Source of the DNA: a virus
Lineage: Duplodnaviria; Heunggongvirae; Uroviricota; Caudoviricetes
Virus record (IMG/VR): IMGVR_UViG_2778261344_000007
Span: 1-4,692 of that record
DNA: 4,692 bases
Strand: one strand, 5' to 3'
Every line of letters begins with the position of its first letter. Position 1 is the stretch's first letter. Under the pieces are notes generated by a model. That model worked only from the letters and a program-made list of their open reading frames with translations. It searched no databases and was not told the origin of the DNA. Both the position numbers and the translations under genes were made by a program. Below are positions 1 through 4,463 of this stretch, piece after piece.

Positions 1-53
1 CTTGCCCACTCGTTATATTTTTCCGCATTAATGGCTTTCTGTGTATTTAACAT
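1..53 (-). CDS. hypothetical protein, 5' end only (17 codons; gene runs off the window start)
   Basis: Minus-strand ATG at 51-53 preceded by GGAGG (plus 61-65, read as CCTCC) with a 7-nt spacer. Frame stays open to position 1 (MLNTQKAINAEKYNEWA...). Too short to name. Confidence 0.4.
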   Translation of the reverse strand, partial: MLNTQKAINAEKYNEWA

Positions 54-158
54 AAATATACCTCCAGTTAAGGATTAAATTTTATTTACAGTGCTGAACT
101 TAATTATTCAGATTTGGATTATGCTTTCTCTTCACGAAGTTCCGATTGTTAATTTGGC

Positions 159-581
159 TCACAACAGCACCTTCTGAAAATTACCCTGATAGAAAGCCAG
201 TACACGCTGCATAGCTTCGCTCTTCCGGCACTCGCTACAGATTATGTTCAGACGCCTGTCGTAGCGGCGTATTTCTCCGTCTGGTAATGACCAGATAAGA
301 TCCGGATCAACCACAACCGGTTTCTTCACCTTTGCCCTTGATAGTTTTTTGCGGGCGTTTTGCCAGTCTTTACGCGCCTGCTCAGACGGGAATAATCCGT
401 AGCCTGAATTGTAAACATCACCACTGGCGACCAGTTCTCTGGCGAGAGTGCTTATGTAATACCTTGATGCACCGGTTTTAGCCTCCAGAGCCCGTAACGT
501 CTCGCGACCGCTCAGACGTACAAGTTCAACAACCTGCCCTTTAATTTTTTCCCGCTCTTCTGGTGTAAATACTTTTGCCAT
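159..581 (-). CDS. Ren-like protein, 140 aa (N-terminal winged-helix-like region, C-terminal ECRKSEAMQRVLAFY motif)
   Basis: ORF-track frame 159..596; start placed at ATG 579-581 because GGAGG lies 5 nt upstream (plus 587-591). The C-terminus ...CSECRKSEAMQRVLAFYQG resembles my recollection of the phage lambda Ren C-terminus (...KECRQSAAMKRVLAVYG). Position distal to the replication genes matches lambda ren. Recollection not verified by search. Confidence 0.7.
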   Translation of the reverse strand: MAKVFTPEEREKIKGQVVELVRLSGRETLRALEAKTGASRYYISTLARELVASGDVYNSGYGLFPSEQARKDWQNARKKLSRAKVKKPVVVDPDLIWSLPDGEIRRYDRRLNIICSECRKSEAMQRVLAFYQGNFQKVLL

Positions 582-596
582 AGGTGCCTCCGGCAA

Positions 597-1358
597 TCAC
601 TTTTCCGACACAATACGACTGGAGGAATCGAAAATCTGTCGAACAATATCCCGGTGCTTGTTCAGCTCCCGCAGCGCGGCGCAGACTCGCTCCCACTTCT
701 GGACATGATTTTTCGCCCGACGCAGTTCGCGGTTTGCCATATGCAGCGATGGTAAAACCAGGTCATCCGCTCGCGTTTCAGTAAACGATGGCAGCGACTG
801 CACAATGTCCGCCACCGTTTCTGTTTTAATATCTTCCTGTGTTGCAGCCTCCTGTACTGGTAACGCAACACCTGTGGGCTGAGGAAAGGCCTTACCATCA
901 GTTTCCGCTACCGATGCTGCTTTCGGCTCTGCTGGTAAATTATCGCCCGGTATGCAGTAACGAAATTTACCGTTCTGGTTTACGCGAATCAGGCGTCCTT
1001 TGCTGATAGCCATTGCCAGCGTTGAAGCTACTTTGCGTGATGTGGTACCGAACAATGTAGCCAACTCATCCGCCGTTTGTGGGCCACGTTGTTCAATCGT
1101 CGCGGTTAAATCGCACTCTGAGATTTTCGCTACTGTTGCCATGGTGGTTTCTTCCGGCAGCTCTGCCGGCGCTGGCTGTTCCTGCTGAACGTTGTTATCA
1201 GCCACGCGCCAGGTGTATACGCTTTTATCAACGAAGCCAGCCTTTTTCAGTTCCCACAGCTCGTTCAGCACTTCTTCTCGACTGATATCAAGTCGCGTAG
1301 CCAGTTCTACCGACGTGGCTTTTCCCATCGCTTTCAGTGCGTCAAAAACGGTCTCCAT
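597..1358 (-). CDS. prophage protein with two winged-helix-like domains, an acidic/Pro-rich linker and a basic helical C-terminus (DUF1627-like), 253 aa
   Basis: ORF-track frame 597..1409; start placed at ATG 1356-1358 (METVFDALK...) because GGGAGG lies 8 nt upstream (plus 1367-1372), whereas the longer start at 1409 has no RBS and would overlap ydaV by 29 nt. Two HTH-like segments are readable ([30 protein letters not shown] and [32 protein letters not shown]). Family assignment is from memory. Confidence 0.75.
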
Positions 1359-1380
1359 TAAAATTTCCTCCCGGTAAAAA

Positions 1381-2127
1381 TTACTTCTCAATACCTGGCT
1401 GACCAACATTCGGGCGCCAGCTCTCCCAGTTAAAATTCACCCAGCGCCCGCCGTTCATGGTCATGCGATCCATAATCCGCTCGCCGAGCAATGTTTTCAT
1501 GGCCTCATAGTTCAGGTTTGTCAGCATCCCCACGCTGCGCATTGACGCTGTCCGGCGATCAACAATCTGGTGCAGTACCACCTGCTCGTTTTTCGTCTCG
1601 CGCTGAATACCAATTTCATCAAGAACCAGCAGATCAACTTCGCACAGTTCCCGCAAAAATTTTTCGCCTGACTGCCCGTCGTCATAGCTGGCGTGCAGGG
1701 CGCTCATAACATCAGCCACGGTAACCACAATCACTGTCTGGCCATCTTTCAGCAGGCGATTCCCGATAGCCGCCGCCAGATGGTTTTTTCCGGTACCAGG
1801 TTTTCCGCTGAACGCGAAATTTGTGCATCCGGTAACCAGTTCGTCAGCGATAGATTTCGCCTGACTCAACGCGTATCGCTGGCCGTCGTTCTGCACCTGG
1901 TAATTCGCAAACGAGCATTTGCGGTGCAACGGCTGTATGCCGGAGCGATTCAGGATTTTTTCCACCCGCAACTGACGATTCTGACGGTTGATCTCCTCAC
2001 AACGTTTCTGGCCTTCTGCAAGTTGCCACTCGCGCCACTCCGCCACCGTCCTGAATGGCGCGGTTACATGTGGCGGGGCCAGTCTGCGGATACGTTCCAG
2101 AACGCCGCCTGTCGCAATATTTTTCAT
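1381..2127 (-). CDS. ydaV: DnaC/IstB-like AAA+ ATPase, putative replicative helicase loader (lambda P analogue by position)
   Basis: 248-aa ORF with Walker [12 protein letters not shown] and Walker [10 protein letters not shown] readable in translation. ATG 2125-2127 with AGGGGG upstream; starts 6 nt after the ydaU stop. Length and context match Rac prophage YdaV as I recall it. Confidence 0.88.
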
Positions 2128-2133
2128 GGTCTG

Positions 2134-2922
2134 TTACCCCCTGAAGCCTGGCGGGATCGCACTGTCCGGAAACGAGACGGTGTTAATCTGTCGGAGCAAC
2201 GTCTCTGGCCGAACACCTTTCGGCGCGAACAAGCCCTGGTATTCATTGGCGATGCTGTGTCGAATCACCTGCTCAGGTGAAAAACCCTGCTGGCGGAATT
2301 TTTCCAGCTCCCGTATCGCCCCGTTAGCGCCCTGCTCCGTTCGAATCGGTTTTCGCAATGCCTGCCTGAACTGAACCCACTCATGCCAGAGTGTTTCCGG
2401 CAACCAGTCAGGCAGCTCGATAGCCTCCGGTTCGAATTTTTTAGACGCTCGTTTTTGGCGAGGGGGATTTAGGGGGAGATAAGTATTTATATCTTCCTCT
2501 TTCTCTTCCTCTGGTAACGCTTTTTGATCCGTTTTTGTAACGCTGGCAGCGTTACCTTTTCGTTTCAGTTCTCGTATTTTTGTTACTCTCTCGTTTGTAA
2601 CCGCCCGTTTTTTAGAGCTTTTCCCGTTATGGCGCTCAAAGTTAGGAAGCGACAACACACCATTAGTTTCGACCAGCCATCCAACCTGAATTAACGCATC
2701 AGCAAAACCAGCCATAAAAGTGATGCGATCTATTGCACTTTTTGTAACGCCGCGAGCGTTACACTCTGCGTTACCGTCTATCATTTGTTGATCCGCCCAT
2801 GCCCAGAAGCGAATGACTTTCCCTAATGCGGCATCTGGATCAATATTCAGAATCTCAGCAAGCCTGAATATTTCCGGCTTATCCGGCGTAATAACTTCGA
2901 GCTTTATCCAGTTTGAAGCCAT
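2134..2922 (-). CDS. ydaU: putative replication initiation protein, YdaU family (lambda O analogue by position)
   Basis: 262-aa ORF, ATG 2920-2922 with AGGTGA about 7 nt upstream. Two-domain layout with a charged low-complexity linker (KSSKKRAVTNERVTKIRELKRKG...EEEKEED) whose coding DNA carries the palindrome/T-tract cluster. Lies directly upstream of the DnaC-like gene. Symbol assigned by synteny and length class, not by search. Confidence 0.8.
   Translation of the reverse strand: MASNWIKLEVITPDKPEIFRLAEILNIDPDAALGKVIRFWAWADQQMIDGNAECNARGVTKSAIDRITFMAGFADALIQVGWLVETNGVLSLPNFERHNGKSSKKRAVTNERVTKIRELKRKGNAASVTKTDQKALPEEEKEEDINTYLPLNPPRQKRASKKFEPEAIELPDWLPETLWHEWVQFRQALRKPIRTEQGANGAIRELEKFRQQGFSPEQVIRHSIANEYQGLFAPKGVRPETLLRQINTVSFPDSAIPPGFRG
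2514..2622. other. candidate replication origin: cluster of GTAAC/GTTAC half-sites with T-tracts inside the ydaU linker-coding DNA
   Basis: GTAAC at 2514, 2537 and 2597, GTTAC at 2551 and 2582; T4-T6 runs at 2521, 2532, 2557, 2577, 2608 and 2619. Just upstream lie GGGGGATTTAGGGGGAG (2462-2478) and an AT-rich/polypyrimidine stretch (2479-2510). Confidence 0.35.
2536..2556. repeat. palindrome copy 1: TGTAACGC-TGGCA-GCGTTAC (inside ydaU, codons 123-130 GNAASVTK)
   Basis: Arms of 8 bp read directly; the reverse complement matches. Confidence 0.85.
2743..2763. repeat. palindrome copy 2: TGTAACGC-CGCGA-GCGTTACA (inside ydaU, codons 54-61 CNARGVTK)
   Basis: Perfect 8-bp arms, 5-bp centre, read directly. 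Confidence 0.85.
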
Positions 2923-2934
2923 TTGTTTTCACCT

Positions 2935-2955
2935 TGTAACGCTCGCAGCGTTACA
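2935..2955. repeat. palindrome copy 3: TGTAACGC-TCGCA-GCGTTACA (non-coding, ends 2 nt before the ydaU Shine-Dalgarno)
   Basis: Perfect 8-bp arms read directly; located in the 77-bp ydaT-ydaU spacer. Confidence 0.85.
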
Positions 2956-2964
2956 TTTAACTGA

Positions 2965-2986
2965 TACCGAACAAAACAGTTCGGTA
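2965..2986 (-). other. hairpin TACCGAAC-AAAACA-GTTCGGTA in the ydaT-ydaU spacer (8-bp stem, 6-nt loop, no U-tract)
   Basis: Perfect 8-bp inverted repeat read directly; lies between the ydaT stop (3000) and palindrome copy 3. Confidence 0.4.
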
Positions 2987-2999
2987 CGATTAATTTCAA

Positions 3000-3422
3000 T
3001 CAATGCACTACGACAGAATCGCTAGGAGAACCGCCGCCGCTGAAATGTGCTTTACGGTAAACGGCCTGGACTGCATCATCATGCGCATCAATTGCCGTAC
3101 TCAGTGCATCCTGTGCCGCCAGTAATGCACGGCGTTCCAGGGTATCGAAGATGCAGAGTCGGTGACGCAGCTCGCGAGGAAGAATTGCCAGAACCGCAGG
3201 GATCAGTTTCTGAATTTTTTCCCTTTGCGCATTCGTTTCACCTTTCAACCAACGATGATAGATATTCTGCTGATTGTTCCAGTCCTTGCCTGGTACCAGG
3301 GGCAATTCGCCGCCCCCCTGGCGCAGATATTCTTCAGTAATTGCGTTAGCGACCCACGCCTGCCCTTTTTCGGCTGCCAGGGCTAACAACACTGATTCGA
3401 TGTGCTCATGCTTGATTTTCAT
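3000..3422 (-). CDS. ydaT: YdaT-family protein (CII-like regulator of Rac-type prophages; historically annotated as a toxin)
   Basis: 140-aa ORF beginning MKIKHEHIESV..., which I recognise from memory as YdaT of the E. coli Rac prophage (unverified). ATG 3420-3422 overlaps the ydaS TGA 3419-3421 (ATGA coupling); GGGAG lies 7-8 nt upstream. Confidence 0.88.
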   Translation of the reverse strand: MKIKHEHIESVLLALAAEKGQAWVANAITEEYLRQGGGELPLVPGKDWNNQQNIYHRWLKGETNAQREKIQKLIPAVLAILPRELRHRLCIFDTLERRALLAAQDALSTAIDAHDDAVQAVYRKAHFSGGGSPSDSVVVH

Positions 3423-3429
3423 GAATCAA
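3412..3429. promoter_or_regulatory. perfect inverted repeat TTGATT-N6-AATCAA centred on the ydaS stop / ydaT start overlap
   Basis: TTGATT 3412-3417, ttcatg 3418-3423, AATCAA 3424-3429, read directly. A weaker relative (ACGATT-N6-AATCAA, 2986-3003) overlaps the ydaT stop. Confidence 0.4.
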
Positions 3430-3673
3430 CTCCCATCAGCTTTTTCGTAGTAGTTTTATTTCTGCCAATAGTTAAAATTGCATCGGCAGAAAATAATCCG
3501 TTTGATGCATGAGCGATTTTTTCAGCGTAATTTGTTTCGCCGGTATATTCTGTGCGAGGCAATTTACCGTTATCCATCCATTTGTAGATTGCTCTTTGGC
3601 TGACACCACAAACGTCGGCCACAACAGAAACGCGAACAGTTTTGATTACATCTTCAAGTGTTTTCTGGTTCAT
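3419..3673 (-). CDS. ydaS: Cro-like small HTH regulator (YdaS-like), 84 aa
   Basis: ORF-track frame 3419..3745; start placed at ATG 3671-3673 (MNQKTLEDV...) because GAGGGTGA lies 5 nt upstream, whereas the ATG at 3745 has no RBS and sits inside the repressor promoter. HTH-like segment VADVCGVSQRAIYKWMDNGKLP. First gene of the operon, divergent from the repressor. Symbol by synteny. Confidence 0.75.
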   Translation of the reverse strand: MNQKTLEDVIKTVRVSVVADVCGVSQRAIYKWMDNGKLPRTEYTGETNYAEKIAHASNGLFSADAILTIGRNKTTTKKLMGVDS

Positions 3674-3697
3674 ATCACCCTCACAATGTGAACTTTG

Positions 3698-3732
3698 AGT
3701 ACATGCTATAACAGAACTGACAGTACATTCAA
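3698..3732 (-). promoter_or_regulatory. candidate early-right promoter (PR-like) for the ydaS operon: -35 TTGAAT (plus 3727-3732), 16-bp spacer, extended -10 TGtTATAGC (plus 3705-3713)
   Basis: Read on the minus strand; would give a leader of about 25 nt containing the ydaS RBS. The -10 is imperfect (ends in C). Confidence 0.4.
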
Positions 3733-3753
3733 GAGCGAATATCATTGAACTTA
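3717..3753 (+). promoter_or_regulatory. candidate repressor-maintenance promoter (PRM-like): -35 CTGACA 3717-3722, 17-bp spacer, -10 TATCAT 3740-3745; predicted start at or beside the racR ATG (leaderless mRNA)
   Basis: Hexamers and spacing read directly; the -10 ends 7 nt before the ATG at 3753 and no RBS is present. Lambda cI mRNA from PRM is leaderless (established), which gives a precedent. Confidence 0.45.
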
Positions 3754-4172
3754 TGGTTCATGAAGATAAAGCGCGTAAAGAGTTCGCCAGTAGGCTTGCG
3801 CTAGCCTGTGAAAACGCTGGTTATGAACAACATGGAAGGCAGGCAGAAATTGCCCGTCGAATGAAATTAACACCAAAAGCGGTTAGCAAATGGTTTAATG
3901 GTGAAACAATTCCTCGCCGAGAGAAATTAAGGGAATTAGCAACACTCATTGGAACAACACCAACCTATCTTTTGGGAGAGGATACAGAAGAAAGTGGACA
4001 GATACGTTTCTATCAGGAGTTAAATCCAAGACAAAAAATCATCATTGACCTTCTGGACGAGCTCCCTGACAGTGAGACAGATGAACTTTTAAAAACTCTT
4101 GAGGAGAAAAAACAGAAGTACAATGCAATTTACGAAGAGTTAGCACGAAAGAAAAAACAAAAAGCCTCTTAA
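3753..4172 (+). CDS. racR: CI-like prophage repressor, XRE-family HTH with a charged helical C-terminus (RacR-like), 139 aa
   Basis: ORF with HTH segment QAEIARRMKLTPKAVSKWFNGETIPRREKLRELATLIG, divergent from the cro-like gene. No Shine-Dalgarno precedes the ATG at 3753, but a good -10 ends 7 nt upstream. Symbol is positional (racR-ydaS-ydaT-ydaU-ydaV order). My memory of K-12 RacR length differs, so this may be a variant repressor. Confidence 0.8.
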   Translation: MVHEDKARKEFASRLALACENAGYEQHGRQAEIARRMKLTPKAVSKWFNGETIPRREKLRELATLIGTTPTYLLGEDTEESGQIRFYQELNPRQKIIIDLLDELPDSETDELLKTLEEKKQKYNAIYEELARKKKQKAS

Positions 4173-4182
4173 ACCAGCATAA

Positions 4183-4220
4183 ATCCGGTAGCGTCCCCCT
4201 CCGGGTTTGTGCTTCACTTT
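4183..4220 (+). terminator. weak candidate terminator after racR: stem ATCCGG / CCGGGT (4183-4188 and 4201-4206, one G-U pair), 12-nt loop, then T-rich TTGTGCTTCACTTT
   Basis: Hairpin begins 11 nt after the racR stop. The stem is short, the loop long and the T-run interrupted, so this is weak. Confidence 0.25.
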
Positions 4221-4247
4221 ATCCCGTCTCATTTTTTTATACATAAA

Positions 4248-4291
4248 ATGTACTTAAAGTACTTTACAATGATGAACACAAAGTACATTAT
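4248..4291 (+). promoter_or_regulatory. operator/promoter cluster downstream of the repressor (OL/PL-like): inverted site 4248-4262 containing palindrome GTACTTAAAGTAC, direct site GAACACAAAGTACAT 4274-4288, candidate -35 TTTACA 4263-4268 and -10 CATTAT 4286-4291
   Basis: Motif copies read directly. Hexamers are moderate matches with a 17-bp spacer, oriented toward the small ORFs at 4464 onward. Confidence 0.4.
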
Positions 4292-4463
4292 ATACCTACC
4301 AACCCACCCCGCCCCACAGAACGCCGGGCAATACTTCGAGTTACCAGGCAGTGGTCAGGGGTTAAGTAGCCAGCCCGAGGCGTATGAACATGACGGCGGG
4401 ATTCAAATTTTGCAGTGCAGCAGTTAGTTCCGCCACCCGGCGTTAAGGGGAAATGAGGTCAAC

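Follow-up and report, generated by a model that had tools for sequence, protein, structure and literature searches.

The immunity region and its repressor gene

The viral DNA analysed here, a stretch of 4,692 nucleotides referred to below as the window, contains an immunity region whose genes, predicted operators and promoters are collected in Table 1. The ATG-initiated open reading frame for a protein of 139 residues is the CI-type lysogeny repressor gene of a lambdoid prophage that occupies the Rac site (ttcA) and is common in E. coli. The gene is real; its annotation in RefSeq is identical, and in the LF82 lysogen of phage Tritos its transcripts stand 24-fold over the local background (PMC9928086). 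The repressor is 100% identical to ECs_1941 of prophage Sp10 in E. coli O157:H7 Sakai, bases 1-4451 of the window share 100% DNA identity with Sakai Sp10, and the two depart from each other only beyond base 4451, in the region of the DUF1391 gene. The EDL933 counterpart of Sp10 is CP-933R. The repressor's 90% cluster comprises 411 members, and about a fifth of the complete E. coli genomes (~1047/5426) carry the module. The repressor of the live phage Tritos is 99.3% identical to that of the window, and an identical protein also occurs in the "phages" vB_EcoS-673R7, 613R10 and 666R9, which we take, from what their preprint says of phages located in the genomes of clinical isolates, to be computational predictions.

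Table 1. Genes, protein modules, predicted operators and promoter-like sequences of the immunity region (window coordinates)
Feature	Position	Strand	Remarks
YdaT / CII-like regulator gene	3000..3422	-	92.5% DNA identity to K-12 Rac ydaT
Cro-type gene	3419..3673	-	84 aa; full-length homology to HK022 Cro
Operator OR, cro-proximal	3689..3703		TGAACTTTGAGTACA; predicted; at or just downstream of PR -10
PR-like promoter for cro	3705..3732	-	TTGAAT-16-TATAGC; position homologous to annotated HK022 pR -35/-10
Operator OR, middle	3713..3727		AGAACTGACAGTACA; predicted; 24 bp from cro-proximal site
PRM-like promoter	3717..3745	+	CTGACA-17-TATCAT; 10/12 matches
Operator OR, cI-proximal	3746..3760		TGAACTTATGGTTCA; predicted; 15/15 identical to annotated HK022 oR site
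Repressor gene	3753..4172	+	139 aa plus stop; identical to ECs_1941, Sakai Sp10 "phage repressor protein"
DNA-binding domain, five-helix XRE/Cro-CI type, HK022-CI type	3753..3977	+	residues 1-75
Linker	3978..4016	+	residues 76-88; acidic, low-confidence
DicA-type C-terminal module	4017..4169	+	residues 89-139; basic tail
Operator OL	4249..4263		TGTACTTAAAGTACT; perfect 13-bp palindromic core; predicted; abuts PL-like -35
PL-like promoter	4263..4291	+	TTTACA-17-CATTAT; leftward early operon
Operator OL	4273..4287		TGAACACAAAGTACA; predicted; 24 bp from other OL; in PL spacer and -10

The leftward early operon begins with the DUF1391 gene and continues with kil, recET, xis and int beyond the window. 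In some records the Cro-type gene is annotated as YdaS-like or as 108 aa long. An Rfam search of the whole window returned zero matches, and the conserved PL leader (4292-4463) folds no better than shuffled sequences (z -1.29).

The prophage shares its ttcA site with the Rac prophage of K-12, whose repressor RacR (158 aa) is likewise short and without an S24 domain, and both have the same flanking genes, ydaT/ydaU/ydaV at one end and the ydaG/ydaF region at the opposite end. Orthology with RacR, which this Rac-like context might suggest, was rejected: only 33 HTH residues align (36%, BLASTP), the hhalign probability is 42% and the C-terminal domains (CTDs) are unrelated. DNA homology between the window and Rac breaks at 3428 and 4297, and the whole racR-ydaS cassette has therefore been exchanged.

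Predicted operators and promoters

Five sites of the form GWAC-N5-GTWC are present in the window, where 0.17 would be expected by chance, and they lie exclusively in the two regulatory regions; the number was reached in 0/200 shuffles. The operators annotated for HK022 in X16093 agree with these sites in motif, spacing and promoter layout; the consensus (TGAAC-N5-GTTCA), the number (three OR, two OL) and the distances (24 and 33 bp at OR, 24 bp at OL) are all the same. On this homology and these statistics, the five 15-mers are the putative operators of the repressor. The middle OR site falls within the PR spacer and shares bases with the PRM-like -35, and the cI-proximal site covers the start codon of the repressor, which suggests that the repressor is negatively autoregulated, as with OR3. 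Only 7 nt separate the end of the PRM-like -10 from the ATG, so that a leaderless repressor mRNA is probable, for which there is a precedent in PaaR2 (PMC8630535). The PR-like promoter was read by eye, the promoter scanner having made no call there.

An HK022-type DNA-binding domain without S24 autopeptidase

The DNA-binding domain of the repressor is 46% identical to that of HK022 CI (235 aa), with a near-identical recognition helix (TPKAVSKWFNGE in the repressor), and 62-72% identical to those of S24-bearing CI proteins (235-240 aa, PF00717) of Raoultella, Klebsiella and others. Pfam recognizes two overlapping models, HTH_3 (residues 29-73, E 1.8e-9) and HTH_31 (residues 10-70). In an AlphaFold2 model of the monomer, built from a shallow 5-sequence alignment (mean pLDDT 81.6), the protein is all-helical with zero beta strands; helices span residues 2-74 and are followed, after a low-confidence linker (78-88), by a hairpin formed by helices 92-103 and 106-138. 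Residues 76-88 probably connect the two modules of the protein. The sequence-only reading of this locus, which had described a 139-aa protein with an HTH in the first ~75 residues and a highly charged, helical C-terminus, is borne out on all of these points by the open reading frame, whose C-terminus is exactly as that reading gave it, the Pfam matches and the model.

The same reading had held that the protein leaves no room for a LexA/CI-type self-cleavage domain, and here the evidence from sequence, fold and remnant searches is concordant. Peptidase_S24 (PF00717) is absent from the Pfam search of the repressor even at E<=1, whereas it is present in the relatives P0021 and P0033-P0038. The AlphaFold2 model, made up of helices only, lacks the beta-rich C-terminal fold of LexA/CI-type proteins, and when it was compared with the PDB by Foldseek, only HTH domains were matched, with no S24 or LexA C-terminal domain among them. 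Searches of the whole window by tblastn with HK022 CI, P0021 and P0034 as queries recovered N-terminal domains only and no S24 remnant in any frame. The claim that the protein shows no Ala-Gly/Ser...Lys signature has to be amended in its first half, since an Ala-Gly does exist at residues 22-23, the only one in the protein. This pair is not a cleavage site, because it is located inside the DNA-binding domain and is present there in S24-bearing relatives too, whose true cleavage site, SAGPG, sits in the linker. The second half stands: no GDSM, G.S or Ser...Lys motif is found in the repressor, whereas the relatives show SAGPG and GDSM. With domain, cleavage site and catalytic dyad, and fold all missing, the repressor does not belong to the LexA/CI-type (S24) family, and as it holds neither room for nor trace of this domain, RecA-stimulated self-cleavage is not expected. 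The immunity region thus resembles that of HK022 in its DNA-binding domain, its Cro and its predicted operators but not in the C-terminal domain of the repressor, where HK022 CI has the SAGPG region and the GDSM...K S24 domain and the Sp10 repressor a DicA-type hairpin.

The DicA-type C-terminal module

The CTD of the repressor is characterized by the motif LxPRxxxLLxLFxxLPxSExDxLxxxLEEKKQxYxxLxEEL. Used alone as a query, it retrieved 38 representative clusters at 50% identity; in the clusters inspected it is attached to unrelated HTH domains and lies at or very near the C-terminal end, and the proteins that bear it are all short (mostly 120-216 aa, plus some shorter fragments). K119 is invariant, and L100, L104, P105, L116 and K120 are conserved in at least 90%. 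When the repressor sequence was compared with the PDB, the matches were to HTH domains only and none to the CTD.

A described counterpart of the same architecture and size is DicA, the 135-aa repressor of the Qin cryptic prophage of K-12. The two proteins align over their full length (pairwise E 2e-16, identity about 26-28%), with the CTD falling on DicA residues 83-131 and the motif LSPxxxxLLELFxxLPESE...FEEL in common, and a 28-sequence profile of the repressor family finds DicA over its full length with 99.7% probability (hhalign, E 1.3e-25). Both genes are divergent from a Cro-like gene, are followed by a DUF1391 gene and encode no S24 domain. The Sp10 repressor is nevertheless a relative of DicA and not its orthologue, because it reaches 56.4 bits with the NCBIfam DicA subfamily model NF007257, below the cut-off of 101. 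The DNA-binding domains also differ, being of HK022 type in the Sp10 repressor and of P22-C2 type in DicA, and so do the operators, with zero GWAC-N5-GTAC sites at the dicA locus.

A more distant likeness links the repressor to GfoR, GtgR and GfhR of the Salmonella Gifsy phages, which are short (136 aa), non-cleavable HTH repressors and remain uncleaved after mitomycin C (PMC3121763). The family profile matches the Gifsy repressor with 98.5% probability (hhalign, E 3e-15) from the HTH through the first CTD helix, LLSLFNQLPEAE, the last CTD helix being unaligned. Lemire et al. (2011) placed both DicA and RacR in the Gifsy repressor class (PMC3121763). The Sp10 repressor shows several features of the DicA/Gifsy class, namely a length of ~130-160 aa, an N-terminal XRE HTH, no S24 domain, a gene in the cI position that is transcribed away from a cro-like gene, and the DicA-type module itself (LLxLFxxLPxSE ... 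EEL).

As judged from the model, the hairpin may act as a surface for dimerisation and cooperativity, and it is possibly also the docking surface of an antirepressor. An architectural analogue, and no more than that, is SinR of Bacillus subtilis in complex with SinI (PDB 1b0n), an XRE HTH protein with a short two-helix C-terminal oligomerisation domain that is captured by a small antagonist protein. SinR is among the Foldseek matches of the repressor model (114 columns, with a full-length rmsd of 10 A); its CTD has no sequence relationship to that of the Sp10 repressor and its biology is different, and it may serve purely as a model of how a hairpin CTD could take part in both oligomerisation and antirepression.

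Inducibility of the prophage and the proposed switch

The missing peptidase domain and the DNA-damage insensitivity of the Sp10 repressor have already been published. Asadulghani et al. (2009) stated that ECs_1941 has no peptidase domain, which SOS induction would require, and that Sp10, scored "D" (defective) in their Table 1, is not inducible by mitomycin C but is spontaneously excised, packaged and transferred to K-12, which it lysogenises (PMC2669165). Treatment with SMX-TM led to no up-regulation of Sp10 genes (PMC5931665). Tritos is likewise produced spontaneously and forms plaques, and it is unlisted among the ciprofloxacin- or trimethoprim-induced prophages of LF82, which is an omission and not an explicitly stated negative (PMC9928086).

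These properties also bear on the idea that the repressor is a decayed, truncated CI in a defective prophage, with a C-terminus that by itself does nothing. In favour of this idea, the DNA-binding domain has full-length S24 repressors as its closest relatives, many O157 prophages are defective (PMC2669165), and some members of the repressor's cluster are frameshifted or truncated (P0007, P0008, P0009). However, the tblastn searches leave no S24-coding remnant or frameshifted CI in any frame of the window, the last 50 residues are a conserved module that recurs on unrelated HTH domains and is homologous to the CTD of the functional DicA, a near-identical repressor keeps up lysogeny in the plaque-forming phage Tritos and is well expressed there, and Sp10 itself is able to excise, be packaged and lysogenise. 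Such decay is therefore highly improbable.

We consider it probable that the gene encodes a two-module CI-type repressor, composed of an HK022-type HTH and a DicA-type hairpin, which is non-cleavable and blind to the SOS signal and whose prophage switches spontaneously. The HK022-type HTH would bind the predicted 15-bp operators TG(A/T)AC-N5-GT(A/T)CA, three of them between cro and the repressor gene and two downstream at the leftward early promoter, and binding would silence both PR and PL and put the probably leaderless PRM transcript under autoregulation. The S24 autopeptidase of the closest relatives of the DNA-binding domain is replaced by the ~50-residue DicA-type helical hairpin, for which we infer a role in dimerisation and pairwise cooperativity. 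As the protein has no cleavage site or catalytic dyad, it would not cleave itself on RecA filaments, and the prophage would in consequence be blind to the SOS signal. The lytic switch would occur only at a low spontaneous rate; as to its trigger, we infer as the most likely route that repression lapses stochastically and that the HK022-like Cro then locks in this state, much like the bistable switches DicA/DicC (PMC10448788) and PaaR2/YdaS (PMC8630535). Possible non-SOS modulators of such a switch would include an antirepressor, proteolysis and temperature. By analogy with DicA, a purely stochastic switch may be incomplete, since DicA, with this type of CTD, has an antirepressor.

Proteolysis could be more than a modulator if the basic tail KKKQKAS were a ClpXP or Lon degron that sets the repressor level, so that induction would occur under conditions raising degradation or diluting the repressor. 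Tails in the CTD family are consistently basic with small-residue ends ([KRN][AVI]S in 11/39 and RRA, RKA or KKA in many others). They resemble the MuA-type ClpX C-motif 2 (RRKKAI), but such a basic tail might just as well touch DNA or simply end the helix. An "inherent instability of DicA" has been suggested by Ragunathan et al., who also reported induction by heat and urea. On balance we find regulated proteolysis of this kind quite unlikely.

Is there an antirepressor?

The sequence-only reading had expected induction, if it occurs, to depend probably on an antirepressor or another trigger. A dedicated factor of the Rem or GftA/GfoA kind, or one like P22 Ant, might strip the repressor off its operators, probably via the conserved CTD, with SOS (via LexA) or some other signal as its trigger and possibly acting in trans from another prophage; we regard this as possible, if on the unlikely side. 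There are precedents among proteins that share the CTD: DicA, whose CTD is homologous, is derepressed 165-fold by Rem (PMC10448788), and the Gifsy repressors, whose CTDs are homologous in part, are inactivated by the LexA-controlled GftA and GfoA (PMC3121763). That GfoA and GfhA are active on heteroimmune repressors points to a common docking surface that does not bind DNA, and polar CTD residues (LPxSE, EEKKQ) that stay strongly conserved while the attached HTH domains vary widely likewise suggest a partner-binding surface. Rem homologues are widespread in E. coli, so that action in trans is conceivable.

In cis, the searches point the other way. Homologues of Rem, GftA and DinI were sought by phmmer and with Rem and GftA family HMMs (that for Rem comprising 70 sequences), and none was found in the prophages scanned; across the 2013C-3277 prophage, Sakai Sp10 (scanned to base 1,964,000 of a prophage that ends at 1,972,663), the predicted prophage 673R7 and Tritos, the HMMs reached an E-value of 0.27 at best, compared with 6.6e-54 for Rem and 2.6e-47 for GftA as positive controls. 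Sp10-type prophages and Tritos, as scanned, thus differ from Qin, where Rem accompanies DicA. The rem-equivalent position of Tritos is occupied by TRITO_42, which was rejected as a Rem and is homologous instead to an unannotated Qin ORF and a Gifsy-1 gene. The LexA box CTGT-N8-ACAG occurs 0 times in the 41-kb stretch L001, which contains the 2013C-3277 prophage from terminase to int and where boxes with one mismatch are at chance level, and a looser scan for CTG-N10-CAG with an AT-rich centre, which recovered the Gifsy-1 LexA box as a control, gave nothing convincing in L001, the tail-side stretch L009, 673R7 or Tritos. The Gifsy prophages, in contrast, are mitomycin-inducible and have a dinI-gftA unit behind a LexA box, and neither unit nor box was found in the Sp10-type sequences scanned. 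Moreover, Sp10 and Tritos are unresponsive to SOS inducers in hosts with many other prophages, and this non-inducibility argues against an antirepressor wired to LexA.

The sole candidate left by this screen, which the sequence-only reading had proposed and which yielded neither Rem nor GftA, belongs to the late lysis cassette and is P22-Ant-like. When the small hypothetical proteins of Sp10 were compared with PHROGs, all were of unknown function except the Ant-like ECs_1965; Sp10-type prophages encode this P22_AR_N/ORF11CD3 protein, which matches phrog_524, "anti-repressor Ant". However, the gene belongs to the late operon, where it is flanked by endolysin and Rz, and would therefore be expressed after derepression, and it is absent from Tritos. 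The expectation of a probable antirepressor accordingly draws on precedent, and in cis it meets neither a Rem or GftA homologue nor a LexA box in searches whose controls were positive.

Implications for lambdoid immunity

Short, non-cleavable repressors are already a well-described class, with DicA, the Gifsy repressors and PaaR2 as examples. What the present analysis adds is that the HK022-like type of DNA-binding domain and operator is combined with an S24 domain in some repressors and with a DicA-type hairpin in others. A more speculative view, which we hold to be rather unlikely as it stands, is that the hairpin is a portable "SOS-blinding" module, by which the operator recognition of HK022 type is kept and inactivation by RecA is lost, its polar face docking a non-SOS antirepressor or protease. 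If this were true, Sp10 and Tritos lysogens would possess a repressor that is dominant and cannot be induced. It would provide an induction-proof immunity against superinfecting phages of HK022 immunity, and when DNA is damaged it could keep S24-type prophages in the same cell silent if they share its operator specificity.

In practice the consequences are limited. Roughly one in five complete E. coli genomes, including O157:H7, carries a prophage repressor that is blind to DNA damage, so that antibiotic treatments by which Stx phages are induced should not mobilise the prophage or its effector cargo, such as the nleG genes of Sp10, whose low-level spread rests on spontaneous switching. The S24 and hairpin versions on an HK022-like domain offer a clean natural pair for probing the function of the hairpin, and the same pair could show whether non-cleavable repressors disturb the SOS induction of related phages.

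The Repressor and the Absence of a Self-Cleavage Domain

The repressor gene is placed in a textbook lambdoid early region, with YdaT/CII-like, O-like and DnaC-like replication, DUF1627 and DUF977 genes on the minus strand beyond the cro-type gene and a DUF1391 (ydaF-like) gene downstream of the repressor gene on the plus strand. For the DUF1627 protein, the mechanical ORF (597-1409) gives 270 aa, against 253 aa (762 bp) in the RefSeq annotation, and the first 17 codons of this ORF, which overlap the end of the DnaC-like gene, are probably not translated. In complete genomes, the region is found within a prophage integrated beside ttcA, the Rac site, where kil, recE, recT, xis and int continue the leftward operon. 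Over positions 1-4451 the window matches prophage Sp10 of E. coli O157:H7 Sakai with 100% identity; its repressor is identical to Sakai ECs_1941, annotated as "phage repressor protein". Of 5426 complete E. coli genomes, 1047 contain at least 80% of bases 3400-4460, and the repressor's 90% cluster has 411 members.

Coordinates of the repressor gene, its control elements and the P22-Ant-like gene (window positions unless a locus is named)
Feature	Position	Strand	Remarks
cro-type gene	3419-3673		divergent from repressor gene
Candidate operators, cro-repressor interval	starts 3690, 3714, 3747		pattern match
PRM-like promoter CTGACA-17-TATCAT	-10 ends 3745	+	7 nt before repressor ATG
Third OR operator TGAACTTATGGTTCA	3746-3760		perfect palindrome; 15/15 identical to HK022 oR site; covers repressor ATG (3753)
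Repressor ORF	3753-4172	+	ATG start, 139 codons; C-terminus rich in lysine/glutamate
Candidate operators downstream of repressor gene	starts 4250, 4274		pattern match
PL-like promoter TTTACA-17-CATTAT			bracketed by the two downstream operator sites
P22-Ant-like gene	30556-31125 in the Sakai Sp10 stretch, L012 (ECs_1965); 3720-4289 in the 2013C-3277 locus, L001		189 aa; profile match 7-210 of 317-position phrog_524

The ORF is as the sequence-only reading had described it, including its length and charged C-terminus, and Pfam, an AlphaFold2 model, Foldseek and tblastn agree that it encodes no Peptidase_S24 domain (S24, PF00717). Pfam assigns HTH_3 to residues 29-73 and HTH_31 to residues 10-70, and Peptidase_S24 was not found in the repressor even at E<=1. 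The AlphaFold2 monomer, modelled from a shallow alignment of five sequences (mean pLDDT 81.6), is all helical, with five helices in residues 2-74, low confidence at 78-88 and a helical hairpin formed by 92-103 and 106-138; Foldseek against the PDB returned HTH domains only, the LexA/CI C-terminal domain not being among the matches. In tblastn searches of the window with three S24-bearing relatives, only the N-terminal domains were matched, and the short length is thus not a frameshift artefact. The earlier statement that an Ala-Gly cleavage signature is missing holds for the cleavage site, but not for the dipeptide, which occurs at residues 22-23, within the DNA-binding domain, where the S24-bearing relatives have it as well; their true cleavage site (SAGPG) is in the linker. 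Lacking both a cleavage site and a catalytic dyad, the repressor would be unable to respond to RecA filaments.

A Chimeric Repressor

The closest relatives of the N-terminal 75 residues are genuine self-cleaving repressors. This part is 62-72% identical to 235-240-aa proteins with PF00717 and 46% identical to HK022 CI (235 aa; SAGPG, GDSM), and the short and long forms share 40 invariant positions, among them those of the recognition helix TPKAVSKWFNGE. Past residue ~75 the resemblance stops, and residues 88-136 align with residues 83-131 of DicA, the Qin prophage repressor (full-length pairwise E 2e-16). When searched alone against 1.84 billion representatives, the C-terminal 60 residues recovered 38 clusters; in the clusters inspected, the match to this C-terminal module (CTD) is at or very near the C-terminal end, and the proteins are all short (mostly 120-216 aa, plus some shorter fragments). 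The family alignment contains a sharp motif, LxPRxxxLLxLFxxLPxSExDxLxxxLEEKKQxYDxLxEEL, with a basic tail after it, and this motif is joined to very different HTH domains across the family. By hhalign, the CTD-family profile matched DicA over its full length (99.7%, E 1.3e-25), the Gifsy-1/2 repressor of LT2 up to and including the first CTD helix (98.5%) and RacR over the HTH only (42%). The repressor scored 56 bits with the NCBIfam DicA subfamily model, under the cut-off of 101, and is a DicA relative, not an orthologue. As judged from these alignments, it is an evolutionary chimera of an HK022-type DNA-binding domain and a DicA-type C-terminal module.

No Pfam match was obtained for residues 88-139. 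The hairpin, in which direct reading of the sequence reveals a heptad-like hydrophobic stripe (L113, L116, Y123, Y127, L130), would most plausibly mediate dimerisation and pairwise cooperativity, a role that falls to the S24 domain in CI. The repressor ends in KKKQKAS (residues 133-139, window 4149-4169). Tails in the CTD family are basic with small final residues ([KRN][AVI]S in 11 of 39; RRA, RKA or KKA in others), and could take part in protease recognition or DNA contact.

Operators, Promoters and Mosaic Joints

Repeat finding and a pattern search located five sites of the form G(A/T)AC-N5-GT(A/T)C around the repressor gene and none elsewhere in the window (0.17 expected by chance; five reached in 0 of 200 shuffles), and the narrower GWAC-N5-GTAC has only two other sites in ~80 kb of prophage and flanks. 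The annotated 15-bp repressor sites of the HK022 immunity record are of the same kind, are identically spaced (24 and 33 bp at OR, 24 bp at OL) and relate in the same way to pR and pL; HK022 Cro also aligns along its length with the window's cro product. Since the PRM-like -10 ends so close to the repressor ATG, the repressor mRNA is probably leaderless, like that of lambda cI. A leaderless message is also documented for PaaR2 (PMC8630535). If bound as the site matches suggest, the repressor would shut PR and PL from the paired sites, and the third OR site, over the repressor's own start, would give negative autoregulation.

DNA homology to K-12 Rac (92-99%) stops at 3428/3429 and resumes at 4296/4297, and the whole racR-ydaS immunity cassette has thus given way to an HK022-like cro/cI one, with ydaT and the leftward leader kept. 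Downstream of the PL-like promoter, the GC-rich stretch 4297-4451 shares 98.7% identity with the Rac sequence that precedes ydaG; no Rfam family matches it, it folds no better than shuffles (z -1.29), and it may be a leader or nut-like region. After base 4451 the window diverges from Sakai Sp10, the DUF1391 gene being only 83% identical, and this is another mosaic joint; bases 3400-4460 are 100% identical in strain 2013C-3277 and others. Many genes of the 2013C-3277 prophage (loci L001 and L009), including recE, intR, the tape measure and tail genes, are annotated as frameshifted, and its far end adjoins pphA/yebW in place of the genes normally found on the Rac side, suggesting that the chromosome was rearranged between prophages.

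Prophage Induction

The lack of S24 was already published for this very protein in 2009. Asadulghani et al. reported that the Sp4, Sp6, Sp9 and Sp10 repressors have no peptidase domain and that Sp6, Sp9 and Sp10 are not mitomycin C-inducible, which fits peptidase-less repressors; Sp10 was nevertheless spontaneously excised and packaged and lysogenised K-12 (PMC2669165). Under high SMX-TM, 87-88 Sp5 genes vs 1-2 Sp10 genes were upregulated in O157 strain PA20 (PMC5931665). The repressor of phage Tritos (LF82) differs from the window's by one residue; in the LF82 lysogen it is expressed 24-fold over background, and Tritos is spontaneously released (~3e6 genomes/mL), plaques on K-12 and is absent from the listed ciprofloxacin- or trimethoprim-induced prophages, an explicit ciprofloxacin negative not being given (PMC9928086). 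These data on an identical or near-identical protein agree with the absence of a RecA response.

The sequence-only reading had proposed an antirepressor or another trigger. Precedent for this exists in the class, as Gifsy repressors are not cleaved and are removed by small LexA-controlled antirepressors (PMC3121763), and Rem derepresses DicA (PMC10448788); a screen gave no support for a dedicated antirepressor of known family encoded in cis. The screen covered prophages only, namely that of 2013C-3277, whose immunity region is 100% identical to the window's, Sakai Sp10 up to its last ~8.7 kb, the predicted prophage 673R7 and Tritos. HMMs of the Rem family (70 homologues) and of GftA and its homologues, which matched their controls at 6.6e-54 and 2.6e-47, gave a best E-value of 0.27 across these prophages. 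The 41-kb 2013C-3277 locus contains no exact LexA box and one-mismatch matches at chance level, and a looser scan of the 2013C-3277 loci, 673R7 and Tritos, which recovered the Gifsy-1 control box, found nothing convincing. The sole antirepressor-like gene, located in the late lysis cassette of Sp10-type prophages between the genes for endolysin and Rz, encodes the P22_AR_N/ORF11CD3 protein ECs_1965 (phrog_524, "anti-repressor Ant"); Tritos has no gene of this type. Because of its position in the late operon, ECs_1965 cannot trigger induction of the prophage that encodes it. With the Sp10 late genes switched on, the protein could target repressors of other prophages in trans. Induction by an antirepressor of an unfamiliar family, or by a trans-acting one, is a possibility in view of the strong conservation of the polar CTD surface and the action of Gifsy antirepressors on heteroimmune repressors.

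At the position of rem in Qin, Tritos carries TRITO_40/41 (36334-38090 of the Tritos locus, L011), an HTH-Peptidase_M78 (ImmA/IrrE-type) gene and its upstream partner, a pair absent from Sp10. In other systems, XRE repressors are substrates of ImmA-type proteases, and by analogy a link of this pair to the Tritos repressor is conceivable. Both genes are expressed in the LF82 lysogen (PMC9928086).

The most economical reading is a bistable CI/Cro-type switch that flips spontaneously at a low rate, behavior demonstrated for DicA/DicC (PMC10448788) and PaaR2/YdaS (PMC8630535). Short non-cleavable repressors were described as a class in 2011, DicA and RacR being named among its members, and the class was further extended in 2021-2023. 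Two points were not found stated in the cited literature: that Sp10/Tritos immunity corresponds to an HK022-type region (DNA-binding domain, five operators and cro) in which S24 is replaced by a DicA-type module, and that this module is a discrete conserved domain outside Pfam coverage. Both represent refinements within a known kind of repressor.
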